Made by a program: the position numbers and the translations under genes
NCBI GenBank assembly: GCA_035583355.1
Contig: DATEZQ010000003.1
Location: 129,844-193,843, forward strand
Length of the DNA stretch: 64,000 nt
Direction of reading: 5' to 3'
Origin: Minisyncoccota bacterium
Lineage (GTDB): Bacteria; Patescibacteriota; Minisyncoccia; Phycocordibacterales; UBA6899
The notes under the pieces: generated by a model
Seen by the model: the letters and a program-made list of their open reading frames with translations, nothing else
Told to the model about the DNA's origin: nothing
Databases searched by the model: none
Shown: piece by piece, positions 1-51,483 of the stretch
Position numbering within the stretch: the first letter of the stretch is position 1
How the letters are laid out: the number at the start of each line of letters is the position of its first letter

Positions 1-185
1 TGTCTATAAAAATTCCCACACGCTGGCTACAATGTTTGATAACAGTCATACAAATAGTTACAAATGAACATTATGAATACAGGAATATTTTATCACGCAA
101 TGTTTCCTCATTGCAGCTTTATCTGAGTGCATTTATGTGGGGAAAAATGACAGTATATGTAAGCTACTTTTATGTGTGTTTGAAA

Positions 186-215
186 TAAAAAAATTACTCG
201 CGCGGGGCGAGCAAT
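186..215 (-). terminator. rho-independent terminator downstream of rpsO
   Basis: Hairpin ctcgcgcggggcgag, followed on the minus strand by a U-run. Confidence 0.6.
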
Positions 216-224
216 TCTTTTTAA

Positions 225-485
225 TTATAGACCAATCTGCTTCAACACGGTGTTGTATACAGCCTCGTTCTTCTTCTTAAGATACTTAAGGTGTGTACGG
301 CGGTCTGCAACCATCTTAAGAAGACCACGACGTGAGTGGTTGTCCTTCTTATTCTCCTTGAGGTGTGCAGCGAGCTCATTGATGCGCTGGCTGAGGATGG
401 TCACCTGAACTTCTGGTGATCCAGTATCTGTTGCGTGGCGCTGGCTCTTCGTGATGATGACCTGCTTCTTCTTTGCGGTTAACAT
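225..485 (-). CDS. rpsO: 30S ribosomal protein S15
   Basis: 86 aa starting MLTAKKKQVIITKSQRHATDTGSPEVQV...LKENKKDNHSRRGLLKMV..., typical of S15. The ATG is at 483-485 on the minus strand. Confidence 0.9.
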   Translation of the reverse strand: MLTAKKKQVIITKSQRHATDTGSPEVQVTILSQRINELAAHLKENKKDNHSRRGLLKMVADRRTHLKYLKKKNEAVYNTVLKQIGL

Positions 486-595
486 GGGAAGGAGTATAGC
501 ATAAAAATTCAGAATATGCAAGCCCGTGGCTGTAGTTATAGTTATTTGACCCTCCCCTCTCTTGGAGTAGCGGGTGGGGGTACACTGCGCACCTA

Positions 596-626
596 AAACA
601 AAGAATCACCACGAGGGGTGATTCTT
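596..626 (-). terminator. terminator hairpin
   Basis: aagaatcacc-acgag-gggtgattctt, followed by a U-rich tract on the minus strand. Confidence 0.5.
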
Positions 627-629
627 GTG

Positions 630-845
630 CTATGTTCCTGGCGCCTTTTCATTCAAAAATTGCTCGAGGAGGTGGTCTCTTGGAGAATCTGCGGGTAGGA
701 ATTCGATTCCCTCCCCCATTTCTGCAAGTTCCTTGTTGATGTCATCGATAGTGACCGGAACACGATGGGTATCAGGATTGAATTTCCCTAGTCCGTGTAT
801 GACGATGTGATCAGGAACTTTTACTTTTTGTACCTGTGGTGGCAT
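630..845 (-). CDS. hypothetical protein (71 aa)
   Basis: ORF in the same frame as the upstream 98-aa ORF. The two are separated only by TAA plus one codon, which indicates translational coupling. I recognise no family. Confidence 0.4.
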   Translation of the reverse strand: MPPQVQKVKVPDHIVIHGLGKFNPDTHRVPVTIDDINKELAEMGEGIEFLPADSPRDHLLEQFLNEKAPGT

Positions 846-848
846 AAA

Positions 849-1145
849 TTATTCCATTGGCATATCACGCAGATAGTCATCGAGTGGAATGTTCCACTTA
901 CCGAAAAAAATGTCTGCAGAATGGGGATCGAGTTCATGGGGGAGGTCATTCGTAAAGCCTGCCAGTGCCTCAAAGTCTGCATCAAGTGTACCCTCGGTTG
1001 CAGTAAAAGCATCAGCCTCTATCGCGCTGCGCATCTCCTTTGCATCAGCAGTCTCTTCTGTGCAGGCCCCAGCATCTGCTGCGCCCACTTCACCATTGAA
1101 TTTCTCCATCATCTTGAGCATATTATAGCACGATTTGAAATCCAT
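849..1145 (-). CDS. hypothetical acidic protein (98 aa)
   Basis: ORF with acidic composition. It sits upstream of rpsO on the same strand. Confidence 0.4.
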   Translation of the reverse strand: MDFKSCYNMLKMMEKFNGEVGAADAGACTEETADAKEMRSAIEADAFTATEGTLDADFEALAGFTNDLPHELDPHSADIFFGKWNIPLDDYLRDMPME

Positions 1146-1186
1146 TTCGAAATTTATCCCCCAAAGAAGTTTGCTATAATGTGTAT

Positions 1187-2125
1187 ATGCAAATTACTGA
1201 CTGGATGCGACGATTCCTGGAATATACCGAAATAGAGCGTGGCCGCAGTCTGAATACGGTGCGCAATTATGAGCACTATCTCTCTACATTCATTGAGCAG
1301 TCGGGTGTAAAGACTCCTGAAGATATTACGAGTGAAAAGGTACGTGAGTTTCGTATGTGGCTTAATCGTAAGATGGTTGGCGTTGGGAAACGAGGTGTCG
1401 CAGCGACGCCGATGAAACGACGCACGCAGAACTATTACTTAATTGCATTGCGTGCAATGCTCAAGTATTTGGTGCGACAGGGCGTGCAAAGTCTCCCTCC
1501 AGAACAAATTGAATTAGCAAAAGTGCCACAAAGGCAGCTTGATCTTATTGGTCAAAATGATCTCAATAATCTTCTTGATGCCCCCGAAGGAGATAGTCTT
1601 GCTGCGCTACGCGATAAAGCAATTCTTGAAATGCTCTTTTCGACAGGGCTTCGTGTTTCTGAGCTCGTTGGGCTCGATAGGGATATTGATATGTCGCAAG
1701 AACATTTCTCGGTGCGCGGAAAGGGAGAGAAGGTACGCATCGTATTCATTTCTGATGACGCGCGTGATAGCGTAAGGGACTATCTTGCGAAAAGGACAGA
1801 TGTTGATCCTGCGATGTTTATTGCTATCGGACGTGGTGGGGAAAAGTCTTTGAGTAAGAAAGAAGGGTCATTGCGCATGTCTGCGCGTTCGATCGAGCGT
1901 ACCGTAAAGCAGTACGCGATTAAGTCAGGCATCACGAAGAAAGTCACGCCACACGTGTTGCGTCACTCCTTTGCTACAGACTTGCTGGAAAACGGAGCGG
2001 ACATTCGTTCCGTGCAGGCGCTTCTCGGACATTCGAGCATCACAACGACGCAGATCTATACACACGTGACCGATAGAGGTCTTCAGGAAATTCATAAACA
2101 ATTTCACGGGAAGCGAAGAAAATAA
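1187..2125 (+). CDS. tyrosine recombinase, XerC/XerD family
   Basis: C-terminal catalytic region HVLRHSFATDLLENGADIRSVQALLGHSSITTTQIYTHV. TATAAT at 1175-1180 lies 6 nt upstream of ATG 1187, a leaderless arrangement. The ORF track starts at GTG 1181. Confidence 0.85.
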   Translation: MQITDWMRRFLEYTEIERGRSLNTVRNYEHYLSTFIEQSGVKTPEDITSEKVREFRMWLNRKMVGVGKRGVAATPMKRRTQNYYLIALRAMLKYLVRQGVQSLPPEQIELAKVPQRQLDLIGQNDLNNLLDAPEGDSLAALRDKAILEMLFSTGLRVSELVGLDRDIDMSQEHFSVRGKGEKVRIVFISDDARDSVRDYLAKRTDVDPAMFIAIGRGGEKSLSKKEGSLRMSARSIERTVKQYAIKSGITKKVTPHVLRHSFATDLLENGADIRSVQALLGHSSITTTQIYTHVTDRGLQEIHKQFHGKRRK

Positions 2126-2288
2126 AACAGATTGTGAAACATCCGCGCCAGGGCGCGGATGTTTCATTACACCTTAACTGTGAAACATAAAAGAGTGCTT
2201 AGTGGACGAAATGGGCGATATGAGTTATCGCGTATATTTCACTTCATCCTACATTCCATATTTGTGAAACTCTTGCTATCATTATTTC

Positions 2289-3074
2289 ATGAAACTTATT
2301 TCGTGGAACGTGAACGGATTGCGCGCATCCATCAAGAAAGGATTTCTTGAATGGTTACACGCACAAGACGCTGATATTGTGGGCTTACAAGAGATTAAAG
2401 CAGAAGAGTCACAGCTCCCTGAAGAAGTGCTCAGACCTCATGGAGCAAAAGGACAATGGCATGCATACTTCTCTCCTTCACGAACAAAGAAGGGGTATTC
2501 CGGCGTAGCTATGTTCTGCAAGGAGGTCCCCGATCGTGTCGACTATGGTATGGGTATTCCTCGCTTCGATGATGAAGGACGTTACATTGCTGTACACTTT
2601 AAGGACATCGTCATTATTAATTGCTACTTCCCAAATGGTGGTGGTGGCCCCGATCGTTTGTCCTATAAGTATGACTTTTATGATGCATTTCTTTTGCATA
2701 TTAATGCACACAGATCTGAGGGAAAGAAGATTATATTCATGGGTGACGTGAATACTGCACATAATGAAATCGACCTCGCACGGCCAAAGGCGAATGAACA
2801 GAACACGGGATTTCTTCCTGACGAACGTGCGTGGATAGACAATGTTGTAAATTCAGGATATGTAGACACATTTCGCCACCTCCACCCAGTCCTCACTGAT
2901 GCATATAGTTATTGGGATATGAAAACTGCAGCACGTGAGCGCAATGTTGGTTGGCGCATCGACTATTTCTTTATCAGCAATGACTTACTCCGCAGGCTTG
3001 TGGGTGCAGGAATCAGTAGTGAAGTCTACGGCTCCGATCACTGCCCTATTTGGGTTGAGCTGAAAGATAAATAA
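2289..3074 (+). CDS. xth: exodeoxyribonuclease III (AP endonuclease, ExoIII/APE1 family)
   Basis: MKLISWNVNGLRA...LQE...GDVNTAHNEIDL...SDHCPIW motifs. Confidence 0.9.
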   Translation: MKLISWNVNGLRASIKKGFLEWLHAQDADIVGLQEIKAEESQLPEEVLRPHGAKGQWHAYFSPSRTKKGYSGVAMFCKEVPDRVDYGMGIPRFDDEGRYIAVHFKDIVIINCYFPNGGGGPDRLSYKYDFYDAFLLHINAHRSEGKKIIFMGDVNTAHNEIDLARPKANEQNTGFLPDERAWIDNVVNSGYVDTFRHLHPVLTDAYSYWDMKTAARERNVGWRIDYFFISNDLLRRLVGAGISSEVYGSDHCPIWVELKDK

Positions 3075-3101
3075 AACACCAACACGCTGTGTTGGTTTTT
3101 T
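3075..3101 (+). terminator. rho-independent terminator of xth
   Basis: aacaccaacacgctgtgttggttttt hairpin plus T-run. A second hairpin lies at 3114-3144. Confidence 0.7.
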
Positions 3102-3156
3102 GTATAAAAATAGACCGCCACGACACCCGAAGGTGTGTGGCGGTAGACGATAGGTA

Positions 3157-3888
3157 CTAGCGGATTCCCTGACGGGCTTCCAGTGCGATGAGCGCAGCGT
3201 ATTCCTCGAGAGAGGAAAGGTTGCGACTGCCGAGCGCGAAGGCGATCTCCATCGAGAGGCTATCGCGCTTCTTTTTCAGATCGGCGGTGATGGTGCGCTC
3301 ACCTTGCGGGTCGGCCTCGATGCTCTCATCCAAGAGATGCATCATGTGACTGATTGCGAGGACTCCCGCTTCCTGATGCTGTGGGATCATCTTGATGCCG
3401 TTGTGCTCGCCCCGAAGGACGTTCGCGACCGGGATCCAGATGGGCGCACGCATTTCGGAAGCCTCGAGTCGCGTGGCGCAGGGCTGCGCGGAACTCTTGA
3501 GGAGTCCCACGAAGTATCCCTTGATCTTGCGATCGGGGCCGACGTGGTGCGTCAGGTTGATGCGCTCGAGGAGAGCGAAGCAGCCGTCCTTGCCCTCTTG
3601 AGTGTCATAGCCGGTCTCGGCCATGAACTCGCGACGAGCGACGCGTTCGAGGGTGAGTGCGTCCGCCTCCTCGGTGGTGATGGTCGCCGACTTGGTGACG
3701 ACATCGACATCTTCGCAGCAACCGCCGAAGAACTTCATGCGGGACTGCTCCTCAGGCCTCTGGGGAATGCGCTCACCGCCGAGGAGGCAGGTCAGGTCTT
3801 CGTTGAAGCACTGGGTGAATGCGGCGCCGATCCGAGGATGGCTATTCGCATACAGGCGGTCTTTGTTCAACTGCTGGGGGTGGACCAC
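3157..3888 (-). CDS. hypothetical protein in a GC-rich patch
   Basis: 243-aa ORF. Local GC is about 60 percent against about 45 percent background. It contains FFGGCCED and shows no recognised family. The opposite-strand ORF 3304-3924 was judged spurious. Confidence 0.5.
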   Translation of the reverse strand: MVHPQQLNKDRLYANSHPRIGAAFTQCFNEDLTCLLGGERIPQRPEEQSRMKFFGGCCEDVDVVTKSATITTEEADALTLERVARREFMAETGYDTQEGKDGCFALLERINLTHHVGPDRKIKGYFVGLLKSSAQPCATRLEASEMRAPIWIPVANVLRGEHNGIKMIPQHQEAGVLAISHMMHLLDESIEADPQGERTITADLKKKRDSLSMEIAFALGSRNLSSLEEYAALIALEARQGIR

Positions 3889-4039
3889 GGGGGCCTCCTT
3901 GTAAGAAAGAACTCAGTCAGGTGACTGGTGCTCATATAATAGCATAGATTATCATATTTGTCTAGGCGTTGCTATGACAAAAAATGTGTGGTAGTTTCAT
4001 TGCAGTTATGGCAATATTGCCAATGTTCAGGAGGAAAAC

Positions 4040-4696
4040 ATGTTCACTCTTCTGCGTAGATTTTTCTATTCGAGCGCTCTCCTCGGCCTTCTTATTGGCC
4101 TCCCCCTCACCGCCCAAGAACACCGCTTGCACGCCGGTGTCTCCCTTTCCTGGGCGATTCCCTCCGGTGCGTTCGGTGGCAGTGACGGGTCTCGTGATTC
4201 GTACTACGATTACGGCCGCAGTCGTGTTCCTGGTTTCGCATCGACGGTGGGAGGCAGCGTCTTCATTGGCGTTCCTCTTGCCGAGCGCGTAGTGATTCGG
4301 CCGAATGCGAGCTATTTCCGCTTCCGTGGCGACGAGGGAGATCACTTCGGCTATCGTGCTACGCCGATGTCTCTCGAGATGTCGAGTGTCGGTTGCGATA
4401 TCCAGATCTTTTTCAGTCAGTCATGGAGGCAGTCACGCGGATATGTCCTCTTGGGTGTCGCTTACGATTCTGAGAAGCTTGCCATTGGCGGTAGGGCCTA
4501 TACAGACAGTGCGCCTGATCAGTACAAGGTCAAACGCAGTGCGGCGAATATCGCCTTTGGAAGGGTTTCGCGGATGGAAGGCGTCGGGGTATTCTACGAG
4601 GTAGGCTTCCATCGGACGCTTTCTGACGACATGCCTGCGGGGCTAGAGATGCCAGGCTCTGATTTCTGGAAGCTCGGCATTGGCGTTACGTTCTAA
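4040..4696 (+). CDS. putative 8-stranded outer-membrane beta-barrel protein (OmpA/OmpW-like fold)
   Basis: AGGAGG RBS. N-terminal signal peptide MFTLLRRFFYSSALLGLLIGLPLTAQE. Eight amphipathic beta-strand segments with alternating hydrophobic residues. Ends in the typical C-terminal ...GIGVTF (Phe). GC-rich. Confidence 0.55.
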   Translation: MFTLLRRFFYSSALLGLLIGLPLTAQEHRLHAGVSLSWAIPSGAFGGSDGSRDSYYDYGRSRVPGFASTVGGSVFIGVPLAERVVIRPNASYFRFRGDEGDHFGYRATPMSLEMSSVGCDIQIFFSQSWRQSRGYVLLGVAYDSEKLAIGGRAYTDSAPDQYKVKRSAANIAFGRVSRMEGVGVFYEVGFHRTLSDDMPAGLEMPGSDFWKLGIGVTF

Positions 4697-4700
4697 AATC

Positions 4701-4724
4701 AACCACCCTTCGGGGTGGTTTTTC
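4701..4724 (+). terminator. rho-independent terminator
   Basis: aaccaccc-ttcg-gggtggtt plus tttt. Confidence 0.7.
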
Positions 4725-5078
4725 TTGCGAGTGGTTGTGGTGTGTGTTAGATATAGAGCAGATTGTGAGTGGGAGGAAAACTTGCGAGAAGCAATAGCAA
4801 TTTTCGTAAATATATTTTGTTTTTGCTACTGTACAGCGCTTGCTTGTGGTAGTTTCGATTACTCGATTCCGAGAATCGATACACGCGGTTCTGCGCTTTC
4901 GCTACACCTTGGGCAATTTTGTTTGCATTCGAGTTCGACTCGCACATTTTCTTCTGGGTTAGTTTTTCGCGAAAGCACATCATTCGTGAATACTCCTCCC
5001 AAGCAGTATGACTTTACTTTTAAGTGCAGTGGTAATCACGCTAGTGCCCAAGCGCATGTGCACCCTTGTGTGTGTATC

Positions 5079-5411
5079 ATGTCTAAGAAATTTCGCATCA
5101 CTTTTGCACACGATTCCTTTGCCTATTTTCCGTCATCGCGAAAGCACTTCGGCACTTATGTCATTGCAGGTGCTCGTGCAGAGTCCTTTCTTCACAATGC
5201 GCAATTTCGGACTGCTCAAATTTCGCTCACCGCAGATTTTCCCTTCACATTGAATGCGGTGAATGTTGGTATGGGGCACAGCATCAGTGTGAAACATAAT
5301 AAATATTTTGGGGAAGTTGCTGTGTTGCGAATGGCGGTGCGCGATGTACTCCTTGGGGAGAGCATCGAACATGTGCACGGTGTACGATTTTCTTTCGGAA
5401 TAATATTTTAG
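5079..5411 (+). CDS. hypothetical small protein, weak call
   Basis: ATG at 5079 inside the long ORF 4680-5411. The N-terminal two thirds of that ORF look non-protein-like (Cys-rich, low complexity). The C-terminal part has alternating hydrophobic residues and ends in ...FGIIF. No RBS. Confidence 0.2.
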   Translation: MSKKFRITFAHDSFAYFPSSRKHFGTYVIAGARAESFLHNAQFRTAQISLTADFPFTLNAVNVGMGHSISVKHNKYFGEVAVLRMAVRDVLLGESIEHVHGVRFSFGIIF

Positions 5412-5446
5412 CCGTCCTGTGAGGCGGCTTTTCTCTAATTAAAAAA

Positions 5447-5468
5447 CGAGGGGGCTTCCCCTCGTTTT
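5447..5468. terminator. bidirectional terminator hairpin
   Basis: A-run, then cgagggggcttcccctcg, then T-run. Confidence 0.6.
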
Positions 5469-5478
5469 GGATTCGCAA

Positions 5479-6030
5479 TTATTTGTAGCGCAAAGAGATG
5501 TAACGATCGAACCAAATTGCAGATACCTTTGTATCGGGCTCTGCATTTTTATATTCGATTGCCGCTTCGCTGAAGTCGGTGCAGGCCTCTGCTCGGAGCA
5601 ATGCATCTTTCTCCTGCAGTTCAGTAAGGCGACGATGCCAAATCGTTGAGGTGGGGTCAGTCTTCTCGGTCGACTTCCAGCCGCTCACGGCGACATCAAT
5701 GTTTTCGCATGCGAGGATTTCGTCCCGCAAGGACGGATTCGTAAGATCGAGGTAACGATTTGCCCAGATGTATTCGGTTTTGGTATCACGCTCTGCATTA
5801 TCCCAGCGCTCCTTTGCTACCTGCCGACTCCGACAGGCGTCAGCGCGTAGGAGTACTTGTTCAAGTGTTATTTTCTCTTTGCAGGCCTTCCATATTTCGA
5901 TTTCCGCAGGGTGAACTGCTTTTTCGAGAAACTGCATTGCGATCACTAGTGCGGTGCAGCGATCGGCTCGCGCCTGGATGATCACACGTGTGCTTTCGGG
6001 TATGGTATACATGAGTGCTCCTTTGTGCAA
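5479..6030 (-). CDS. hypothetical protein with internal repeats of about 45 aa
   Basis: 183 aa. Repeated segments LLRADACRSRQVAKERWDNAERDTKTEYIWANRYLDL and LLRAEACTDFSEAAIEYKNAEPDTKVSAIWFDRYISL. Confidence 0.5.
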   Translation of the reverse strand: MHKGALMYTIPESTRVIIQARADRCTALVIAMQFLEKAVHPAEIEIWKACKEKITLEQVLLRADACRSRQVAKERWDNAERDTKTEYIWANRYLDLTNPSLRDEILACENIDVAVSGWKSTEKTDPTSTIWHRRLTELQEKDALLRAEACTDFSEAAIEYKNAEPDTKVSAIWFDRYISLRYK

Positions 6031-6160
6031 CTGTGAATATTATACTATGTATTACATGGTTAGTCTAGTAACTATAATGTTATATATTAACGATGAGGAC
6101 TGGATATAATTTGAGCAGAGCAAAATAAAAATACACATAATATGTGTATTTTTATTTTGC

Positions 6161-7669
6161 TTATTTCACACGGTATTTGTTGCGAATTTCCTTCACTTCT
6201 TTTTCTTCCTCACTTGCGCGAGTACGCTTCCCTTCTTCGCCTTTCGCAAGAAGTACCTCTTGAGGAAGCATCGCGAATTCTTTTGCGGTTCGCTCGAGCC
6301 ATTCGGTTGTATTGCGCTCGGGGTCCTCAAGCACCTCATCAAAGAGTGCATTGAGGATGGCACCAATGCGCGGACCTGCAGGTTCATCGATGGTCTCCAT
6401 GATTTTTGCACCATCAATCTTTAGCATCTTCACTGATACTGGCGCGCGCATCGCTTCTTCAATCATCGAGTGATATTTGCGCAAGCGATACGGTGTCTCC
6501 ATTGGACGTCCAGTTCCTATACGATCACATGCGCGCACATTCATAAGGTCCCAGACTAATTCAGGTCCGACATTCGCAACAATGCGACGCACTGCGGAGA
6601 GTGTGATCGTCTCTATATCAGAGAAGAACATGTGATAGCGCACGAGTTGTGTGGACTTGAAAATGATTTCGCGAGAATATCGAAGGCGCTCAAGAATTTT
6701 CTTCGCCATCTTTGCGCCGATTACTTCATGTCCATAGAATGTCCACGTCTTTTTCTCCTCTGACCACCTGCGTGATGCAGGTTTGCCAACATCATGAAGT
6801 AATGATCCGAGTCGAACATGAAGTGGCCAAGAGCGATCGGCTGCATGTTGAAGGGCTCGAAGATTGTGCTCCCATACGTCATAGATGTGGATTCCCTTCT
6901 GTTCGCACCCTAGCCCCTCGATAAGCTCAGGGCAAACATAGGTGAGTAAACCCACACGATGGAGGACAAGAATGCCTTCCATTGGTTTCGCACTCATGAG
7001 CATTTTTGAAAATTCGTCACGCACACGTTCCATGGCTATCTTCTCGACAAGCGGAGCGTGAGAAATTACTGCTTCAAGAGTTTTCTCCTCGATAGTGAAA
7101 TCAAGTTGTGCGACGAAACGCACCGCACGCATGACGCGAAGTGCATCCTCAGTGAAACGCAAGTGTGGATCACCCACAGCGCGGATGGTGCGCTTTTTGA
7201 TATCGCTTACTCCGTCGTAAGGATCGATGAGCTCATCACGGACGACATTATATGCGATAGCGTTCATAGTAAAGTCGCGACGCTGCAGATCCTCATAAAG
7301 GCTCTTTGAAAATTGCACGCTGTCAGGGCGGCGAAAATCGCTATATGTAGATTCTGTTCGATAGGGTGTTATCTCAACAATGCGCAACGTTGCACGTTCG
7401 GTATCATTCTCTGGGATTGTTTCATTTACTACTCCGACAGTGCCAAAATCATTCTCATAGAATGTATGGGGAAAAAGTTCGATAATCTCAGCAGGCGTGG
7501 CATTCGTGGTAAAGTCCCAATCTTTCGGAGTCTTTCCCTCGAGGAGATCTCGGGTGCAACCACCGACGAGATAAGCTTCGTAGCCTGCGGATTCAAGAGT
7601 GGAAGCAACGGATGAGATTTCGGGTGGGATATTTAGTAGGGGCATAGTTGTGTGTTGCACGTTAAACAA
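6161..7669 (-). CDS. cca: CCA-adding tRNA nucleotidyltransferase / poly(A) polymerase family with HD domain
   Basis: Class II nucleotidyltransferase N-terminus LVGGCTRDLL and a later HDVGK HD motif. Consistent with tRNA genes here lacking an encoded CCA. Confidence 0.8.
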   Translation of the reverse strand: MFNVQHTTMPLLNIPPEISSVASTLESAGYEAYLVGGCTRDLLEGKTPKDWDFTTNATPAEIIELFPHTFYENDFGTVGVVNETIPENDTERATLRIVEITPYRTESTYSDFRRPDSVQFSKSLYEDLQRRDFTMNAIAYNVVRDELIDPYDGVSDIKKRTIRAVGDPHLRFTEDALRVMRAVRFVAQLDFTIEEKTLEAVISHAPLVEKIAMERVRDEFSKMLMSAKPMEGILVLHRVGLLTYVCPELIEGLGCEQKGIHIYDVWEHNLRALQHAADRSWPLHVRLGSLLHDVGKPASRRWSEEKKTWTFYGHEVIGAKMAKKILERLRYSREIIFKSTQLVRYHMFFSDIETITLSAVRRIVANVGPELVWDLMNVRACDRIGTGRPMETPYRLRKYHSMIEEAMRAPVSVKMLKIDGAKIMETIDEPAGPRIGAILNALFDEVLEDPERNTTEWLERTAKEFAMLPQEVLLAKGEEGKRTRASEEEKEVKEIRNKYRVK

Positions 7670-7678
7670 GAAAAAAGC

Positions 7679-7714
7679 GTTTCACGTGGAACTAGTCTAA
7701 TTATATAGACTAGT
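7679..7714. promoter_or_regulatory. palindromic operator-like sites in the cca promoter
   Basis: GTTTCACGTGGAAC at 7679-7692. A perfect 9-6-9 inverted repeat ACTAGTCTA-attata-TAGACTAGT at 7691-7714 lies immediately upstream of the cca start, which is on the minus strand. Confidence 0.4.
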
Positions 7715-7821
7715 GATTAATTTGGTAGGTATCAAGATGCCAGAACTCGCCCCTTCGTCACATCCATATTTCATTTCGCTGTGCTCATGAAATATGGTGT
7801 GCGAGTAGGGCCAGGGCTCGG

Positions 7822-7964
7822 TTGCCCAGGACTCGACACCACTCACAAAGTAATTTAGGAGCAAAGCACCTAAATTACTAAGTGGTGGTCGTCACGGCTC
7901 GGCGACCCTGCGCTGCGCTTCGCGCGAGCGAGGGTGCCCGCCTCCGCCTTTCGAGTCCGGCGGG
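7822..7964. repeat. tRNA-3'-end-mimic element D, downstream of tRNA-Arg
   Basis: Degenerate direct copy of the tRNA-Arg 3' end at 7822-7840 (ttgcccaggactcgacacc). GC-rich hairpin core. Inverted copy of the tRNA 3' end at 7950-7964 (ttcgagtccggcggg). A terminator hairpin at 7981-8007 separates it from the tRNA. Confidence 0.6.
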
Positions 7965-8014
7965 ATCTCGAAAAATTGCGGCGAATAATGCTTCGCATTA
8001 TTCTTGCATTTTTG

Positions 8015-8086
8015 TGCCCCCGCCAGGACTCGAACCTGGGATAACGGTTTCGAAGACCGTTGTGATATCCACTTCACTACAAGGGC
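8015..8086 (-). tRNA. tRNA-Arg (anticodon UCG)
   Basis: Manual cloverleaf: acceptor GCCCUUG/CGGGGGC, anticodon arm ACGGU-CUUCGAA-ACCGU, T-arm CCAGG-UUCGAGU-CCUGG, discriminator A. No encoded CCA. Confidence 0.8.
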
Positions 8087-8238
8087 ATTAATTGTTTAAA
8101 ATACTCTAACCTGGGAAAAGCAAGGCGCTCCGCGCACCAGGCTTGCTTGCCCGATAAGGAGCCGCCACCGCGGCACTGATCAACTCACGCCTTCGCTCTG
8201 CTCAGTCGCTCACGGGTAACGGATTTCTTGACTGTCCC

Positions 8239-8284
8239 GATATCCGCTTCACAACAAGGGCATTAATTGTTTTTTCGAATACTC
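8239..8284. repeat. partial copy of the tRNA-Arg 5' half plus its upstream flank
   Basis: gatatccgcttcacaacaagggcattaattgttttttcgaatactc is about 85 percent identical to 8064-8106, which is the tRNA 5' part plus flank. Confidence 0.65.
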
Positions 8285-8405
8285 AAATTCTTGAAAACTT
8301 GACTGCAAAAACTATGCTCAAAAACGAGCGTAGACACAATATACGTTAAAATGGCTCACTTGCCAAATATTTTAAAATCGGTTAATATACCTCTACAACA
8401 AAAGG

Positions 8406-8476
8406 CGCGGGTATGGTTTAGTGGTAGAATGCGTCCTTGCCAAGGACGAGACGGGAGTTCGATTCTCCCTACCCGC
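8406..8476 (+). tRNA. tRNA-Gly (anticodon GCC)
   Basis: GCGGGUA acceptor, anticodon arm CGUCC-UUGCCAA-GGACG, T-arm GGGAG-UUCGAUU-CUCCC, discriminator A. No CCA. Confidence 0.85.
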
Positions 8477-8484
8477 ACAGCACA

Positions 8485-8707
8485 GAAAAAACAGAGCAAA
8501 GCTCTGTTTTTTCTTTTGTGCTTGCGGGTAGGGAGAATCGAACGGAGAGGGGTCGGGAGAGGAAGCCTCTCCCGTCTAGGAGAGCAGGAGTTTCTTGTTT
8601 CACAAGAAACCCCGTCGAGAACCGTGGGTTCTCGAAGAACTTTGCCGTGCGGGCCCCTTTAGGGTGCGCGAGCAAAGTTCGTGAGATCTCTCCCCTCCCT
8701 ACCCAGG
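8485..8707. repeat. tRNA-3'-end-mimic element A, downstream of tRNA-Gly(GCC)
   Basis: Terminator hairpin at 8491-8505 with flanking A and T runs. Perfect 20/20 inverted copy of the tRNA 3' end at 8523-8542. Hairpins cgagaaccgtgggttctcg and gtgcgggcccctttagggtgcgc. Degenerate direct copy of the tRNA 3' end at 8677-8707. The core is about 75 percent identical to element B in the opposite orientation. Confidence 0.7.
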
Positions 8708-8750
8708 CAAAGCCTGGCTAGGGAGTCCCTGATGTTCCTGGGTTTGTTCA

Positions 8751-9353
8751 GTTGTCCTTTATCCCCACTCTCCACAGCCTTATACACAGACAAAGTGTGG
8801 AAAAACTCACTCAGCTCGTATCCTTCAATGAATTTTTGTTGCTATTGAGCCACTTCACAAAGGACACTGTGGACAACCCTGTGGATAGCGGGGATAACTA
8901 TCATGCAAATGTGGAGTTCGATAGAAGTTTTCCCTAATTTCCGGAAATTTGGCTGTTCCCACCATTACTCAATTGTCTGCCCCCTGCCTCCTCCGATTTG
9001 GCCCATGTCTCTTTGATTTGCCATAGCTCCTTGATCTTATGTGCCTATACACATCATATGCCTAGGTGGTGGGGAAAACTCTGTGGATAGTGGGGATAAA
9101 GGACAAATTAGGGTATTTCCTCACGGAATTGCGATTCCTGGGGCTTTATGCTACAGTAGCGCACCTCTGAGTTCTCAGACAATGTGTGGAAAAATGGAGC
9201 AGCATCCTCGCTATTCCATAGAAATCTTATATTTTAGCCGATATTTTGCCTGTATCTGGGGATAACCCTGTGGATAGTGGGGATAAAGGACATTGATTAT
9301 CTTTGAATTCCTCAATGCACAGTCTTTGCTATTGATATACATAGTTATCCACA
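8751..9353. other. candidate chromosomal replication origin (DnaA-box cluster plus AT-rich region)
   Basis: Four copies, one inverted, of a 26-bp repeat of the form ctgtggatagYggggataaaggacaa at 8751-8779, 8877-8900, 9081-9106 and 9258-9295. TGTGGATAG is 8/9 of the DnaA box TGTGGATAA. Extra TGTGGAAAA boxes. A perfect TTATCCACA at 9345-9353 followed by aatataatttatatttaaaa. Confidence 0.5.
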
Positions 9354-9391
9354 TAATGAATATAATTTATATTTAAAACCGCGAAATACAT

Positions 9392-10445
9392 GTTTCACGG
9401 GAAACAAATTGATATATAATGGGTATATGGATCACAGGATGAGTAATACCGAGGTTGGCACTATGGGTGAAACACTTGCAGTCCGCTATCTCAAATCAAA
9501 GGGATTCTCCATTCTCGCGAAAAACTTTAATATCCCTGGTGTTGGCGAGATCGACATTATCGCTCACTGTGACGGCACTTTTCATTTTGTCGAGGTGAAA
9601 TCCTCATATTCCTTCTCGCTAAACAGTGAATATCACTCTTCTCGTAACTTTGATGATGCGAAAAAGCAACGTATTGCACGAGTTATGCGGAAATACTGTG
9701 ATTTGTATAAGATCGATAGCCCTCGAACTGTAAGCCTCTGCGTTATTTCCTTTTCACGTGAAACATATGATGCTCGCGTATTTTTTGACCCTTTTGTACT
9801 GGTTGACACTATTTGATTTCACGTGAAACGTTGGGACTTGGTTTCATACGAGTGTAATAATATATATTAATTTGGTATTCGAGCTCTGTATTTTCAGCCG
9901 GATTATTGCGCCTGCACGTTTCCCTACTGAAATAGACATTGCTCACCAGGAATCGCTGCAAAATCTGTATGTGGGTCATTACGTAACATGCCATACCCCT
10001 TCCGCTGTGTACTTGAGTATTCTGCATATAATCCAGTTTTCACGTGAAACAAATTGGATATGTGATATCCATAAACAGCCAGACGTTCATGTTCCAGCAA
10101 TGTGTTACGTAGGAACATTATGGTTTCATGTGGAACATGTGATTCTTGGTATTTTGTATTTGATCACTAAGAATGTGTAATAATTACAATTCATGAATAC
10201 CTATTCAGAAGCATATTGTAGCAAATGACCGTTGCGAAGTGTTCAGTACTGTTTCACGTGGAACAGGACATGTCGATCAATGCAATAGCTAAGCTGACCG
10301 TGATCATTGGTCTATGTAGTGCTATGGCTGCTCAGGTATGCATGGATTCTTATATGGCAATTGATATTCTGAATATTTTCTGGAGAACTGCGTGGTTGCA
10401 GAAAGTGATATTGCTGCAAGTTGGTCATTATGTTTCGCGTGAAAC
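9392..10445. repeat. array of 7 copies of the 14-bp palindrome GTTTCACGTGRAAC
   Basis: Copies at 9392-9405, 9751-9764, 9815-9829, 10036-10050, 10123-10136, 10251-10264 and 10432-10445. 9817-10620 is AT-rich with no convincing ORF. Confidence 0.7.
9409..9816 (+). CDS. YraN/UPF0102-family endonuclease-like protein
   Basis: GETLAVRYLKSKGFSILAKNFNIPGVGEIDIIAH...FVEVK. The true start is probably at an internal Met (9439 or 9463). Confidence 0.7.
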   Translation: MIYNGYMDHRMSNTEVGTMGETLAVRYLKSKGFSILAKNFNIPGVGEIDIIAHCDGTFHFVEVKSSYSFSLNSEYHSSRNFDDAKKQRIARVMRKYCDLYKIDSPRTVSLCVISFSRETYDARVFFDPFVLVDTI

Positions 10446-10624
10446 AGAAAATAGGCAATATTCATATGCATTGTTGAGTTACTACGTAACCATTGTAAAC
10501 ATAATTATTATTGTCTGAAAATATTCTTTGTACTATATTTTTCATTATCATTTTATAATAGGCGTAAGCAATAAAGTCTTATGTCCTTTATTTCCACTGC
10601 TGAAATTTTTGTGGTATAATGTAA

Positions 10625-10969
10625 GTGTCTTATAGGGAACTTGTTCCAATTATGTCACATCATCCATTACTCATTGTCAAGGCACGTCATGTAGTTCGCC
10701 ATTCGCATCTTAGTGATGAGGATAAGCAGCTCATGTTTGAGCGCATTCCATATCTTGATCTTGGAATGCTCGCTCTTTTCATTGAGTCTGCTGAAGAGAA
10801 TCCATTTGCACTTGATGCAATTGTGAGTAGTATGAAAAAGAAGCTTGATGCTCGAGGTAATCTCCACCGTTTACATGAGATCCTCGAGAATGAAGAAAAG
10901 GAAATCGCTGACGAGGAAGGAGATGAGACACTTCCGGGTGTTGAATTGAATAATAGCGCAGCAATCTAG
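10625..10969 (+). CDS. hypothetical protein
   Basis: ORF preceded by TGTGGTATAAT, an extended -10. Probable start at MSHHPLL. No family recognised. Confidence 0.4.
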   Translation: MSYRELVPIMSHHPLLIVKARHVVRHSHLSDEDKQLMFERIPYLDLGMLALFIESAEENPFALDAIVSSMKKKLDARGNLHRLHEILENEEKEIADEEGDETLPGVELNNSAAI

Positions 10970-10980
10970 CGAATATCTAT

Positions 10981-12000
10981 ATGAAAGAGCATTTAAACAA
11001 TCCAGAAGAGGAAATGTTTGCAGCATATGGTGAAGACCTTGGCGAGGCTCCACAAGGGGAGTCTGTTGAGGCTGAGCAGCAGTCTGCGGGAGAGGTCCTT
11101 GAGGATTCTCCTATTTCTGACGCTGATCGATATGCAGAGCAGGTGCTCGCGGGCCATTCTCCCGAAGAGAGGGCTGCTGTGGAGAGTATAGTTTCCTCTA
11201 TTGAGAACGTGTACGCAAAGGTAAGTTCTGATGACGTCTTGACCCGAGAAAAAGCTACGGAGGCTTTGCTGGGAACTGCGTTTGCAGCTGCACCAACCAC
11301 AGCCATGGGGCATGAGCAGGAACCATTGTGGAAGAAGGTTCTTACAGGGGCTTCACGGGGTGCCCACGGTGCAGTGAAGGCTCTGGCACTTACTGCAACT
11401 CTTGCAGCTCCTGCTGCAGCACAGGATTACAAGCATCCTAGCCCTGAGATTACTAAAAAAGTTGATTATATATTTGGATCGAGCATTATGGAGCGATTTG
11501 GTGATAGGCGTGGTCACTATAAGAAAGCCTATACAAATCTTGAGGTGCGAAAGAAATTTCTCATCCAGCAGCTTCATGATTTAACTGATGCTCGTCCAAG
11601 AAATACTGCAGAGGAGACTCATATTTTGCGTGTTGAGGCTGATCGTGATGCGAAGCTCGCAGCCCTCCGTGTCGAGCGTACGCTTGAAACTATGTCATTT
11701 GAGAGTCTGCATTCAAATAATCCTGTAGATAAGGCACAGTATGAGGCGAATATTGCCTCGATTGCTGCAAGAGAGGCTAGGGCAATAGAGGAGTGTGAGG
11801 CACAGCTGCTTGCAGAGCATCGTAAGGCGGTTCCAGTAAAGGAGGTTGAAGACTTGCGAAGAGAAATCATTCGAATTGAGAAGAGTGAGGATGAGATTGT
11901 CCAAAGATTCCTCGCGACCCGAAATAACTCGTATAGTTACGGCTCAAGCTGGGGGTTTGGTGGTGGAAGAAACTGGACGCAGTGGGATGGGTATAAATAA
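10981..12000 (+). CDS. hypothetical acidic, coiled-coil-rich protein
   Basis: 339-aa ORF, no family recognised. The ORFs overlapping it on the opposite strand were judged spurious. Confidence 0.5.
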   Translation: MKEHLNNPEEEMFAAYGEDLGEAPQGESVEAEQQSAGEVLEDSPISDADRYAEQVLAGHSPEERAAVESIVSSIENVYAKVSSDDVLTREKATEALLGTAFAAAPTTAMGHEQEPLWKKVLTGASRGAHGAVKALALTATLAAPAAAQDYKHPSPEITKKVDYIFGSSIMERFGDRRGHYKKAYTNLEVRKKFLIQQLHDLTDARPRNTAEETHILRVEADRDAKLAALRVERTLETMSFESLHSNNPVDKAQYEANIASIAAREARAIEECEAQLLAEHRKAVPVKEVEDLRREIIRIEKSEDEIVQRFLATRNNSYSYGSSWGFGGGRNWTQWDGYK

Positions 12001-26679: not shown

Positions 26680-26755
26680 GACCGTATAACAACTCTCTTC
26701 TTGAGGGTTGTTATTTTTTATTACGAATGTTGTGCTGTGCTATAATATGTTTACT

Positions 26756-28510
26756 ATGCTCGCCGAGGAGATCAAATTGAAGAAATTTATTATCGATTCC
26801 GGTGTCATTTCACGCGCGGATATTCTTGCTGCAGAAAAGGAAGCAGAAAATAGCAGCAGCACGCTCGCGGAAACACTTGTAAAGCAAGGGAAGGTTACGG
26901 CAGATGACATGCGTCGCATGCAGGCTTATGTGCTTGGTATTCCTTATGTCGACCTTCGTGGACAAAAGATCGAAGCTGAGGTGCTCGCATTGGTTCCAGA
27001 ACCAATAGCGCGTAGACACAATATCGTTGCATTTCGACGCTCCGAACAGGGTCTCGAGGTTGCAATGCTCGACATCAATGACCTTGAAGCGATAGACTTT
27101 GTGCGCAAGAAGGTGGGTATTCGCATACTTACGAGACTCACGGACCGGGAGTCGATGAAATCAGTGCTTCTGCAGTATCAAAAGTCTCTTAAGGCGGAGT
27201 TTGGGGATATCATCCAACAGGAAGCAAAGGCGATGAAGGTGATTCGAGGTGAGTCAGGAGATGAGGCCGCGTCTGAAATGGACCTCAAGAAGCTTGCAGA
27301 AGATCTACCAGTGGTGCGTATCGTTGATACACTACTTAATCATGCAATCTTGCAGGGTGCGTCTGATATTCATATTGAGCCAATGGAGAACCAGCTCTTG
27401 GTGCGTTATCGTATTGATGGTATTTTGCATGACGCCATGGTGCTCCCAAAGGACACCGCTCCTGGCATTACCGCACGCGTTAAAGTGCTCTCGAACCTGA
27501 AGCTCGATGAGAAGCGTTTGCCGCAAGATGGACGCTTTAAGATCCAGCTTGATGCAGAAAAAGTTTCCTTCCGTGTATCGACATTGCCGACGCACTTTGG
27601 AGAGAAGACCGTCATGCGCCTCCTCCGTGAGTCATCAGGTGGATACACCCTTGAGGCCTTAGGCTTCCACGGTTATTCACTTGAGACATTGCATCAGGCA
27701 ACGAAACAGCATATTGGACTTATTCTTGTCACAGGTCCTACTGGTTCTGGTAAGACAACGACACTCTATACAATGGTCGACATCTTGAATACTCCTGATG
27801 TAAACATTTCTACCGTTGAGGATCCTATTGAGTATCAGATGCCACGTATTAATCAGACACAGATTAGGCAAGATATTGGTCTCACGTTCGCCGCCGGTTT
27901 GCGCTCACTCTTGCGCCAAGATCCTGACGTGATTATGGTTGGAGAAATTCGTGATGGTGAAACTGCATCGCTTGCTATTAATGCTGCACTCACTGGACAT
28001 CTCGTGCTTTCGACACTCCATACGAACTCTGCTGCAGGTGCGATTCCACGCTTCATCGATATGGGTGCTGAGCCATTCCTTATCGTTTCAACGGTGAATG
28101 TTGTTGTTGGACAGCGTCTTGTGCGCAGGCTCACTGCAGCGAAAGAGAAATATAATATGACCCCCGAGGAACTGCGCAATTTGTCTCGAGGAGTCAATAT
28201 GGATCGTTTGCTTGAAGCGCTCATCGAGGAAAAGATTGTGCCAAAGGACACAACTTGGGAGACGATGCCATTCTACAAGCCAAAGCCTGGTGCTGATAGT
28301 GAAGACGGCTATAAGGGCCGTATTGGTATCCATGAGGTGCTCAAAATGTCTACGATGCTTCGCGAGCTCGCACTGAAGAATGCTCCAGCCGAGCAGATCG
28401 AGACGCAGGCACGTAAGGAAGGAATGTTTACGATGCTCGAGGATGGTATATTTAAAGCGGTGATGGGTCTGACAACCATAGAGGAAGTGTATCGTGTTGT
28501 GAATGAATAA
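26756..28510 (+). CDS. pilB: type IV pilus assembly ATPase PilB/GspE family
   Basis: Walker A GPTGSGKTT, GEIRD, an Asp box and the tetracysteine-less C-terminus of a PilB-like protein. TATAAT at 26741-26746 suggests a leaderless start at 26756. The ORF track starts at 26708. Confidence 0.85.
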   Translation: MLAEEIKLKKFIIDSGVISRADILAAEKEAENSSSTLAETLVKQGKVTADDMRRMQAYVLGIPYVDLRGQKIEAEVLALVPEPIARRHNIVAFRRSEQGLEVAMLDINDLEAIDFVRKKVGIRILTRLTDRESMKSVLLQYQKSLKAEFGDIIQQEAKAMKVIRGESGDEAASEMDLKKLAEDLPVVRIVDTLLNHAILQGASDIHIEPMENQLLVRYRIDGILHDAMVLPKDTAPGITARVKVLSNLKLDEKRLPQDGRFKIQLDAEKVSFRVSTLPTHFGEKTVMRLLRESSGGYTLEALGFHGYSLETLHQATKQHIGLILVTGPTGSGKTTTLYTMVDILNTPDVNISTVEDPIEYQMPRINQTQIRQDIGLTFAAGLRSLLRQDPDVIMVGEIRDGETASLAINAALTGHLVLSTLHTNSAAGAIPRFIDMGAEPFLIVSTVNVVVGQRLVRRLTAAKEKYNMTPEELRNLSRGVNMDRLLEALIEEKIVPKDTTWETMPFYKPKPGADSEDGYKGRIGIHEVLKMSTMLRELALKNAPAEQIETQARKEGMFTMLEDGIFKAVMGLTTIEEVYRVVNE

Positions 28511-28511
28511 A

Positions 28512-28531
28512 AAACATAGCTTTGCTATGTT
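28512..28531 (+). terminator. pilB terminator
   Basis: aacatagc-tttg-ctatgtt plus T-run. Confidence 0.65.
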
Positions 28532-28566
28532 TTTTATTTTCACATCACGAGACACTCCTCAAGTTC

Positions 28567-28680
28567 GCGGCACTGGCCTTTTTGCCGGGGGCTGCCTCAC
28601 GCTTCGCCTTCGCCGTACCACTGTACGTCGTCAGGCTCCAGCGAGGCAGCCGCCGACAAAAATGCTCAGTGTTTCATAGT
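28567..28680 (+). promoter_or_regulatory. conserved structured intergenic element, copy 1 (upstream of pilC)
   Basis: About 75 percent identical to 62033-62145. Outer stem GGCUGCCUC/GAGGCAGCC and inner hairpin CGUAC-cacu-GUACG. Copy 2 shows compensatory changes in both stems. Conserved 3' tail aaaaatgctcagtgtttcat. Confidence 0.55.
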
Positions 28681-28745
28681 TTGGGAGATGCAATGCACTG
28701 CGACTTTGTCGCAGAGGAAATACAATTCATGGTATTATTAAGACA

Positions 28746-46675: not shown

Positions 46676-46703
46676 AACCCACCAGTATCTGCTGGTGGGT
46701 TTT
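46676..46703 (+). terminator. rho-independent terminator
   Basis: aaacccaccag-tatct-gctggtgggttt plus T. Confidence 0.7.
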
Positions 46704-46748
46704 ATTGTCCCCTTAGGAGTGGGCAGCTTGTGGTGTACAATAGAGGTA

Positions 46749-48545: not shown

Positions 48546-48618
48546 CAAACACTATCTTGCAGATAGTGTTTGTTTTCGTTTCATGGTCGTGTACAATGAA
48601 GTAGTAATGAACGTTGGC

Positions 48619-49242: not shown

Positions 49243-49243
49243 T

Positions 49244-51412: not shown

Positions 51413-51441
51413 TTGACAAAAGTGGTATTTTGTGCTATATT
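51413..51441 (+). promoter_or_regulatory. sigma70-like promoter
   Basis: TTGACA, 17 nt, TATATT. Downstream SD aaggaga and ATG 51484. Confidence 0.55.
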
Positions 51442-51483
51442 ATCAATGTTCATTCTCAATCAACTCACTTTCAAGGAGACCTC

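Follow-up and report, generated by a model that had tools for sequence, protein, structure and literature searches.

The small outer-membrane (OM) barrels of the OmpA/OprF-N, OmpX/Ail/Lom, NspA, OmpW and PagL types (Pfam PF13505, OMP_b-brl, clan MBB) carry a Sec signal and comprise about 190 mature residues, in which eight antiparallel, amphipathic strands are joined by short turns at one end of the barrel and by long loops at the opposite end. Their interior is polar and charged, and the C-terminal strand has an alternating pattern of hydrophobic residues and ends in phenylalanine. OM β-barrels with a C-terminal β-signal are held to be a hallmark of bacteria with two membranes and the β-barrel assembly machinery (BAM). 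Note that small eight-stranded barrels such as OmpA and OmpX do fold into bilayers in vitro without BAM. The Candidate Phyla Radiation (CPR), or Patescibacteria, are treated as single-membraned descendants of diderms. Here we report on a stretch of 64,000 nucleotides from a Minisyncoccota bacterium (GenBank assembly GCA_035583355.1, contig DATEZQ010000003.1, positions 129,844 to 193,843), referred to as the window, in which an islet between the conserved genes xth and cca encodes a 218-aa protein that is predicted to share all of the above features with the small OM barrels. It differs from them in failing to match PF13505, in lacking any solved structure that matches by sequence, in having no OmpA_C peptidoglycan-binding domain, and in its host, which belongs to a group regarded as single-membraned and devoid of BAM and lipopolysaccharide (LPS). 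The long loops, the most variable part of the small OM barrels, are here the most conserved one.

Candidatus Paceibacterota, the source label of the DNA, is a synonym of the phylum Minisyncoccota within the CPR/Patescibacteria. The impression of a CPR-like genome in an earlier first-pass annotation is borne out by this label and by the contents of the window, which include PilB, PilC, several pilin-like proteins, ComEC, RNase Y and lower glycolysis, while no respiratory chain domains were found among its open reading frames (ORFs) with Pfam.

The barrel proteins and their relatives

The AlphaFold2 model of the 218-aa protein, based on five orthologues, shows an N-terminal helix (residues 2-18) and eight strands (31-45, 69-81, 84-93, 114-124, 133-146, 163-179, 182-193 and 207-217), and its first long loop contains a further short helix. 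The confidence of the model is moderate, with a predicted local distance difference test score (pLDDT) of 63.6 and a predicted template-modelling score (pTM) of 0.60. Seven of the eight strands are amphipathic, with alternating hydrophobic and polar faces. A Foldseek search of the PDB returned, in this order, OprF-N, OmpA transmembrane domains, NspA, OmpW, Ail, OmpX and PagL, all with a probability of 1.00 and with E-values from 1e-5 (OprF-N) to 6e-3 (1.2e-4 for the OmpA domains). The top 12 matches were OM barrels throughout, mostly small eight-stranded ones, and the target-normalised TM-scores of the model to solved barrels were 0.43-0.66. Among predicted viral structures (BFVD) the best matches were phage-encoded OM barrels of at most 15% identity. 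The signal peptide comprises approximately residues 1-25, with MFTLLRRFFYSSALLGLLIGLPLTA preceding the cleavage site and QE following it, and has a basic n-region and a hydrophobic core, followed by a small residue ahead of the cut (PLTA, then QE); it was judged from the sequence and from the retention of this pattern in 20/20 family members. At the other end, W210-K-L-G-I-G-V-T-F218 resembles a β-signal (W-x-L-x-I-G-V-x-F), and both W210 and F218 are invariant in the 218-type proteins. Modelled strands, amphipathicity, invariant phenylalanine and Foldseek matches thus agree with the first-pass proposal of a signal-peptide-bearing, eight-stranded barrel ending in Phe.

Among the five 218-type orthologues, 100 of the 218 columns are invariant, and they are unevenly distributed: 65% of the columns in the four long loops, 46% in the strands, 15% in the signal peptide and 8% in the short turns. 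As the long loops are the best-conserved part, the loop face seems to be a functional surface rather than an antigenically variable one. In the second long loop, R96-G97-D98 (4325-4333) is invariant in 5/5 of these orthologues, within the motif F-R-G-D-x-G-D; the tripeptide may be a coincidence, and only a eukaryotic partner organism would make it interesting.

For the 218-aa protein itself, Pfam and NCBIfam gave no match, for PF13505 not even at E<=1, and searches of PDB sequences with the family alignments A1, A2, A3 and A4 produced chance-level matches only. An exhaustive profile search of 1.84 billion representative proteins retrieved only 15 family representatives (numbered with P below), all of 204-233 aa save P0020 (375 aa). 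Of 20 family members, 18 end in F, one in W and one in L. Seven of the 20 aligned members match OMP_b-brl (best E=4.4e-8), and two of them, P0014 with 31.3 bits and P0021 with 31.8 bits, exceed the gathering score of 28.7; the CPR members P0012 (22.5 bits) and P0025 (weak) remain below it. A profile built from the nine non-CPR-type members only finds the 218-aa window protein at E=4.9e-28. The link of the window protein to OMP_b-brl is an indirect one, by way of profile searches. On the evidence of these profiles, the barrel genes are homologous to the OM barrels of diderm bacteria, and, going by fold and family, the 218-aa ORF can best be regarded as a divergent branch of the OMP_b-brl or OmpA-OmpX kind that is specific to its lineage.

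One of the relatives, P0018, lies on a 41-kb contig with 69% G+C content (GC) that also encodes complex I, AccBC and RibH. The AccC of this contig is 80-87% identical to those of Holophaga and Geothrix metagenome-assembled genomes (MAGs), which places true homologues of the barrel in the Holophagaceae (Acidobacteriota, a classical diderm phylum). A genome scan with AccC retrieved 80 loci, none of which had a barrel homologue within 4 kb of accC, and when GTDB species genomes were scanned for the pattern of the 218-type alignment, none of the 37 matches encoded a relative. The nearest non-CPR relative is about 25% identical. In a neighbour-joining tree the CPR branches are long, and the bipartition that unites them has a bootstrap value of 0.535.

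A second barrel gene, missed in the first-pass annotation, follows directly. Its listed ORF extends from 4680 to 5411, but the terminator of the first barrel gene lies inside this frame, so the start was reassigned; the TTG at 4782, chosen for a Shine-Dalgarno site at the distance also found in the first gene, is by these signals most likely the real start. The resulting 209-aa protein ends in R-F-S-F-G-I-I-F. A BLASTP comparison of the two window barrels was not significant, and their kinship rests on profiles: one made without any 209-type sequence finds the second barrel at E=4e-7, and the 218-type profile finds P0019, of the 209-type orthologue family, at E=3.9e-6 among 1.84 billion proteins. 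The second barrel and its positional orthologue in a related locus (L002, see below) match at E=8e-7 in BLASTP. The profile matches show the second barrel to be a highly divergent paralogue and product of a duplication; it may be degenerating. Also overlooked in the first-pass annotation was a helical-repeat gene, which is conserved as the third constituent of the islet and encodes 183 aa. Its product is 27% identical (E=2e-16) to that of a 178-aa gene in the same position in L092, and 177-aa genes occupy this position in L009, L011 and L094. Neither Pfam, PADLOC nor PHROGs holds a family match for it, apart from one chance-level PHROG match (E=0.075), and beyond this match NCBIfam, PADLOC and PHROGs gave nothing for any islet protein. 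A reading as defence island or prophage cargo finds no support in these scans.

Persistence and composition of the islet

In every related contig recovered, comprising at least five other independent Paceibacterota assemblies, the islet sits in the same slot between xth and cca. Locus L001 has S15, two small genes, xerC, xth, the Nudix-like gene described below (minus strand), a 218-type barrel gene (plus strand) and cca. L002 keeps this order and adds a 209-type barrel gene, L003 has the Nudix-like gene beside a 209-type barrel only, and L009 and L010 hold a tandem pair of barrel genes and the helical gene. In L092, xth is followed by a remote Nudix-like homologue, a 233-aa barrel, a helical homologue and then MGMT, and in L093 (GCA_025355525.1, 37% GC) the order is NYN, xerC, xth, a 150-aa secreted protein, barrel P0025, three small genes and cca. 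In L006, a more distant member of the Paceibacterota whose RNase Y is 74% identical to that of the window, barrel P0012 stands beside RNase Y, at a different locus from the islet and with a native GC of 0.37. The Logan assembly of SRR5133178 is 100% identical to positions 1-8641 of the window. Together, the recurrent synteny of L001, L002, L003, L092 and L093 and the identical Logan assembly show that the contig is authentic and that the barrel family is established in this lineage, and they refute the chimeric or mis-binned contig considered in the first-pass annotation. Flanking direct repeats or att-like sites around the islet were sought and none were found, nor were island-specific mobility genes; there was no PHROG match above chance level, and xerC is conserved and syntenic.

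The conserved flanks and the islet differ markedly in their rate of change. Between the window and L001-L003, protein identity is 89-98% for S15, xerC, xth and cca (93-96% for xerC, 92-95% for xth), but 63-75% for the Nudix-like protein, 57-70% for the 218-type barrel and 26-42% for the 209-type barrel. The synonymous divergence (dS) of the flanking genes xerC, xth and cca is saturated, at about 1.5 to >2 or not computable, and is lower only for the short S15 gene, at 0.33-0.60. A nonsynonymous divergence (dN) of 0.03-0.07 in the flanks compares with 0.19-0.32 for the Nudix-like gene and 0.23-0.34 for the barrel gene. At the level of aligned sequences, the barrel proteins are shown to change several-fold faster than their flanks. 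For the first barrel, the 100/218 invariant columns and a dN of 0.23-0.34 at saturated dS nevertheless point to purifying selection.

The sharp shift in composition for which the patch was first singled out is real. Against a window-wide GC of 0.474, the Nudix-fold gene has 0.612 and the first barrel gene 0.563, with 0.404 in the 151-bp spacer between them, and the maximum of the 64 kb in 700-bp windows lies at 3151-3900 (0.61, z=4.3). The tetranucleotide and codon-usage comparison suggested in the first-pass annotation agrees: in 1.5-kb windows the tetranucleotide distance from the window average reaches z=3.1 at 3001-4500, and GC at third codon positions (GC3) deviates with z=4.0. The reference for the latter are the ORFs of at least 150 aa in the window, with a mean of 0.480 and a standard deviation (SD) of 0.075. 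By codon position the 243-aa Nudix-fold gene has 0.635 (GC1), 0.418 (GC2) and 0.783 (GC3, 4 SD above the window mean), whereas the 218-aa gene has a GC3 of 0.612 (1.8 SD above the mean) and a high GC2 of 0.489. GC3 is 0.427 in xth and 0.538 in the 183-aa gene, and the second barrel gene is native in composition (GC 0.444, GC3 0.41). The anomaly is therefore largely synonymous and peaks in the 243-aa gene; while both ORFs of the patch are GC-rich as first described, it is not the barrel gene that carries the main deviation. The first-pass delimitation of the patch by terminators is likewise met with in the sequence, as T-run hairpins at both edges. A second GC-rich patch is found at 53459-54856 and 51430-51987, where GC in 700-bp windows reaches 0.57 (z=3.0); it contains an NMO-like 465-aa gene (GC3 0.60) and an unassigned 185-aa gene (GC3 0.63).

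The GC3 excess recurs in related lineages. For the Nudix-like gene GC3 amounts to 0.78, 0.73, 0.76, 0.76 and 0.68 across five lineages and for the adjacent barrel gene to 0.61, 0.60, 0.62 and 0.68, with flanks at 0.29-0.52, and it is seen for both genes in every lineage of approximately 0.47-0.51 GC. As it persists across saturated synonymous divergence, the excess must be continuously maintained and is not the un-ameliorated mark of a recent import. High expression with codon adaptation was rejected as its cause, as ribosomal protein, ClpP, trigger factor and NusA genes of the window have a GC3 of only 0.45-0.52. An overlapping antisense gene was judged unlikely for the reason given below. 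Possible causes are a biased gene conversion, at a variable locus prone to recombination, or selection acting on properties of the mRNA or DNA.

The 243-aa protein, called unassignable in the first-pass annotation, did yield to structure prediction. Its AlphaFold2 model (pLDDT 81.5, pTM 0.81) shows a Nudix fold with a C-terminal three-helix extension (residues 169-239), and Foldseek found 169 PDB matches with E<=1e-3, of which the best 50 listed all have the Nudix fold. They include NUDT12, YmfB, Dcp2 and ADP-ribose pyrophosphatases, with E-values down to 8.8e-6 and a probability of 1.00. As modelled, it is a cytoplasmic, divergent Nudix-fold protein. The Nudix box is degenerate (R86-E-F-M-A-E-T-G-Y94): all six members of the family have Ala or Val in place of the first glutamate of the EE pair, and the G-x5-E part is split from RE by an insertion of about 16 residues, so that the full box G-x5-E-x7-R-E-U-x-E-E-x-G-U with its catalytic glutamates is not present. 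The score for the Pfam family NUDIX (PF00293), 13.9 bits (E=0.057), falls short of the cut-off at 21.1. With a degenerate box and a sub-threshold Pfam score, catalytic competence is uncertain. When 5.8 billion proteins were searched by word index, with single sequences and with profiles, only the six members and no relative beyond the clade were found; further members are encoded in L001 and, as the remote homologue, in L092 (hhalign to alignment A2, probability 96.5%).

In L001, the public gene call chose an antisense ORF at 3509-4270 (+) over the true gene at 3536-4255 (-), and with the true protein absent from the protein database the family seems smaller still than it is. The corresponding antisense ORF of the window, 3304-3924(+), was rejected as a gene. 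It has no Shine-Dalgarno site and is the codon-aligned reverse frame of the Nudix-like gene; a stop in this frame requires TTA, CTA or TCA as a sense codon of that gene, and these are rare at a GC3 of 0.78, making the long ORF a by-product. A further reason for this rejection is the confident Nudix-domain model obtained for the product of the minus strand.

Outer-membrane-type barrels in a presumed monoderm

Published work regards the CPR as a monoderm clade (bioRxiv 10.1101/2021.05.31.446380), LPS genes are missing from Parcubacteria (PMC5220378), and a Gram-positive wall is described for one cultured patescibacterium (PMC13059738); for most CPR, the structure of the envelope is unresolved (PMC5220378; PMC8871954). 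In the literature on outer-membrane proteins, porins and BamA in CPR/Patescibacteria, we found no prior report of OM-type barrels. Among the window ORFs scanned with Pfam and the gene calls of the 6 kb upstream, there are no Omp85/POTRA, Lpt, Lpx, Lol, Skp/SurA or secretin domains. BamA, LPS or Lol genes do not appear in the 64 kb or in the 6 kb upstream, only a fraction of the genome, and PilQ secretin is absent from the window despite the presence of PilB, PilC and pilins.

The reading that we favor, with fair though by no means full confidence, is that the islet between xth and cca is native to one Paceibacterota lineage, long-resident and fast-diverging there, with a maintained GC3. Its recurrent products are a Nudix-fold protein (minus strand), one or two predicted Sec-exported eight-stranded barrels (plus strand) and a helical-repeat protein (minus strand). 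Sec would export a barrel precursor, whose signal peptide would be cut off behind Ala so that Gln or Glu becomes residue +1, and the mature protein would fold into a lipid bilayer as a closed, non-conducting barrel with a conserved charged network in its interior (R87, D120, D143/E145, R166, R175, E187, H191). The four long loops on one face would probably form a binding surface outside the cell. Insertion is pictured as BAM-independent and from the outside, into the cell's own membrane or that of a partner. BAM independence is inferred because the CPR are regarded as monoderm and LPS-less and because no component of BAM is seen in the DNA that was read; as OmpA and OmpX fold without it in vitro, this is the most economical reading. 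As to origin, an ancient transfer from a diderm is plausible: there was probably one ancient acquisition, followed by duplication, with retention from a diderm ancestor the less likely course.

Several points weigh against this reading. The CPR clade of barrels is weakly supported (bootstrap 0.535), so that a single acquisition is not established. BamA was looked for in 64 kb plus 6 kb of the genome, where none was seen. No case is documented in which a monoderm cell assembles such a barrel without BAM, and the insertion of these barrels into a membrane is a prediction. An unrelated secreted protein replaces the Nudix-like one in L093, which makes a functional coupling of the islet genes uncertain. 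Finally, the barrel model, built from 5 sequences, is of moderate quality only (pLDDT 63.6; TM-scores to solved barrels 0.4-0.66), and the 218-aa protein itself has no Pfam match.

These last points also feed the foremost alternative, unlikely in our estimate but deserving of attention, that the barrels are not embedded in a membrane at all and are either soluble proteins, secreted or wall-associated, or decaying relics of an old transfer. A very fast divergence would fit, in particular that of the second paralogue, which is down to 26% identity with its positional orthologues and rich in Cys and His, as would the want of a known insertion route in a monoderm. Against this alternative speak the purifying selection on the first barrel and the ORF, Shine-Dalgarno site, conserved upstream blocks and terminator, which are intact in all loci. 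So do the amphipathic pattern of 7/8 strands and the C-terminal strand of OM protein pattern, and the best fold matches are all membrane barrels, not lipocalins or avidins.

Next comes the proposal that this Paceibacterota lineage has a real outer membrane or lipid layer with a BAM-like insertase, making the barrels ordinary native OM proteins. The retention of a canonical signal peptide and of a β-signal-like motif with an invariant Phe would be hard to explain if nothing read them, and the envelope question in CPR leaves room for such a layer. We nevertheless regard this as improbable, given the envelope genes missing from the window and its upstream 6 kb, the type IV pilus genes without PilQ and the literature cited above, as well as a barrel family that is tiny, confined to one clade and unlike a core envelope component.

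Recent horizontal acquisition from a diderm donor, with the high GC as the donor's un-ameliorated signature, was among the explanations put forward in the first-pass annotation. The strongly atypical GC and GC3, an otherwise diderm barrel superfamily and a tyrosine recombinase gene, xerC, at 1 kb distance could all be read in this sense. The orthologues, however, occupy the same slot although the flanks have diverged to a dS of about 1.5 or more, and the GC3 excess was kept throughout. No close donor is found among 5.8 billion proteins: the closest non-CPR relative of the barrel is only about 25% identical, and the searches revealed none beyond the clade for the most anomalous gene, the Nudix-like one. 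Direct repeats do not flank the islet, xerC itself is as conserved and syntenic as reported above, and the second barrel is native in composition, as is the barrel of a related genome with low GC. We consider a recent transfer very improbable. An artefact of assembly or binning, with a diderm fragment spliced into a CPR contig, has nothing but the sharp compositional steps at the terminator-bounded edges in its favor and can be set aside as practically negligible, with the same junctions in six other contigs from various samples and assemblers, the identical Logan assembly and typical CPR genes on either side in a contig of 259,514 bp.

A wider reading, which we put forward tentatively and would sooner doubt than assert, is that monoderm CPR episymbionts without BAM have kept, duplicated and specialized OM-type barrels, which would assemble without this machinery, either from outside in the symbiont's cytoplasmic membrane or in that of the partner cell, with their conserved long loops serving in attachment and the GC3 excess marking a local force. 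If true, this would be the first β-barrel 'outer-membrane' family at work in a monoderm-type envelope outside the mycolata. The barrels might then be a molecular handle on the docking of CPR bacteria to their hosts, and the maintained GC3 would point to an unrecognized local force such as biased gene conversion or selection on mRNA. There are three possible consequences of the findings, namely an unrecognized outer lipid layer in part of the CPR, the use of small barrels without BAM, or a target in another cell's membrane, and each of them bears on the diderm-to-monoderm transition and on host attachment of ultra-small episymbionts. The islet is in addition a natural case of strongly atypical GC3 without recent transfer, and as such a caution for composition-based detection of horizontal gene transfer or mis-binning in MAGs.

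Features of the window and comparison with known systems

The coordinates of the islet and its flanks are summarized in Table 1. Both ORFs of the first-pass annotation were found where it had placed them, each with a strong Shine-Dalgarno site. As the Nudix-fold gene lies on the minus strand, it and the first barrel gene are transcribed divergently from the spacer between them.

Table 1. Position and strand of the genes and signals in and around the xth-cca islet.
Feature	Position	Strand	Remarks
xerC, tyrosine recombinase	1181-2125		1 kb from patch; Pfam
xth-type exonuclease III (Exo_endo_phos)	2289-3074	+	Left flank, islet boundary; Pfam E=1.5e-31
xth terminator, hairpin with T-runs on both strands	3078-3096		Terminator scan
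GC-rich hairpin CCGCCACGACACCC-GAAG-GTGTGTGGCGG, then TCTATTTTTAT on minus strand	3115-3143	-	Read by eye; missing from consensus terminator-scan list
Nudix-fold gene, 243 aa, GTG start	3157-3888	-	AAGGAGG-5nt-GTG; VJ579_01990/VJ579_01995 pair, both hypothetical proteins
Divergent intergenic region, 151 bp, AT-rich	3889-4039		GC 0.404; conserved blocks GTGGTAG at 3988-3994, CAGTTATGGC
Perfect 14-nt palindrome TGGCAATATTGCCA	4009-4022		Between GTGGTAG block and Shine-Dalgarno site of barrel gene
First barrel gene, 218 aa	4040-4696	+	AGGAGG-5nt-ATG
Intrinsic terminator of 218-aa barrel gene	4701-4720	+	8-bp stem, 5 GC pairs, T-run
Second barrel gene, 209 aa, TTG start	4782-5411	+	GGAGG at 4772-4776
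Intrinsic terminator of second barrel gene	5410-5429	+	Terminator scan
Helical-repeat gene, 183 aa	5479-6030	-	Same position in other loci
CCA-adding enzyme (PolyA_pol head + HD)	6161-7669	-	Right flank; Pfam; 89-92% identical to L001, L002 orthologues

The GC-rich hairpin at 3115-3143 is, from its sequence, the probable terminator of the Nudix-like gene. Within the spacer, a scan found minus-strand promoter-like sites at 3980-3951 and 3964-3936. In an alignment with L001, L002 and L092, the TGGC-N6-GCCA half-sites of the palindrome are retained in three loci; the outer half-sites TGGC and GCCA are kept in L001 and L002, and the inner arms covary, with AA/TT in the window and G/C in L002. Such a pattern could be that of an operator or a 5'-untranslated-region hairpin. 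A perfect 21-nt AT-rich inverted repeat with a 1-nt gap, at 6119-6161, lies directly downstream of the cca stop, in the spacer between cca and the 5' end of the 183-aa gene, and is probably the cca terminator.

Elsewhere in the window, a 59-nt direct repeat (80% identical) occurs at 8039-8097 and 8214-8272, and its first copy overlaps tRNA-Arg(TCG) at 8014-8086; by sequence, the second copy looks like a partial tRNA duplicate such as results when an element integrates at a tRNA gene. A perfect inverted copy of the 21 nt that end tRNA-Gly(GCC) (8457-8477) is present at 8523-8543. The adjoining stretch from 8000 to 11000 is the most tetranucleotide-deviant of the window (z up to 3.8) and AT-rich (GC 0.35-0.41 at 9000-10800). 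Besides a UPF0102/NERD-like nuclease gene (9409-9816) it contains small ORFs that match no family, and it may be an integrated element. A 959-aa protein encoded at 57957-60836 combines a GH19 (chitinase/lysozyme-like) domain, a GH18 domain and a C-terminal peptidoglycan-binding domain, and is a candidate for a wall- or host-degrading enzyme of an episymbiont. At 46695-50692 and 62253-63851, large pilin-like proteins have N-terminal methylation motifs fused to other domains, among them a CarboxypepD_reg domain (616 aa) and RCC1 β-propeller repeats (532 aa), near PilB and PilC (26708-29966).

With the Nudix hydrolases of the MutT, ADP-ribose pyrophosphatase, NUDT12, RppH and Dcp2 types, the 243-aa family shares the alpha/beta/alpha fold and an invariant helix with R-E-U-x-x-E-x-G-U. 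It differs from them in its degenerate box, in a conserved CC(E/T) motif and in the extra C-terminal three-helix bundle. The closest comparison for the barrel outside the CPR is with P0013-P0024, from Holophagaceae and other metagenomic bacteria, which have the same length and terminal Phe at only 22-27% identity to the window barrel, and which share with it the motifs P-x-G-x-F after strand 1, G-x-Y...G-x-S-x-D and E-x-x-[FY]-H-x-T-L-[ST]-G. The Holophagaceae copy stands alone between a peptidase M14 gene and an 81-aa ORF, with an ABC transporter beyond, whereas the CPR copies lie in a dedicated variable islet beside a Nudix-like gene, and their branches are much longer.

The islet as a whole may be compared with the O-antigen and capsule loci of enterobacteria, which are hypervariable, have persistently atypical GC and lie between galF and gnd. 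By analogy, the islet resembles such hypervariable surface loci between conserved flanks: it too has a fixed slot, conserved neighbors and fast-changing contents, with the 218-type barrel, the 209-type barrel and the helical gene each present or absent, and it shares their lasting atypical composition. It is distinguished from them by a shift of GC that is high, not low, by its size of 2-3 kb and by encoding proteins instead of sugar pathways.

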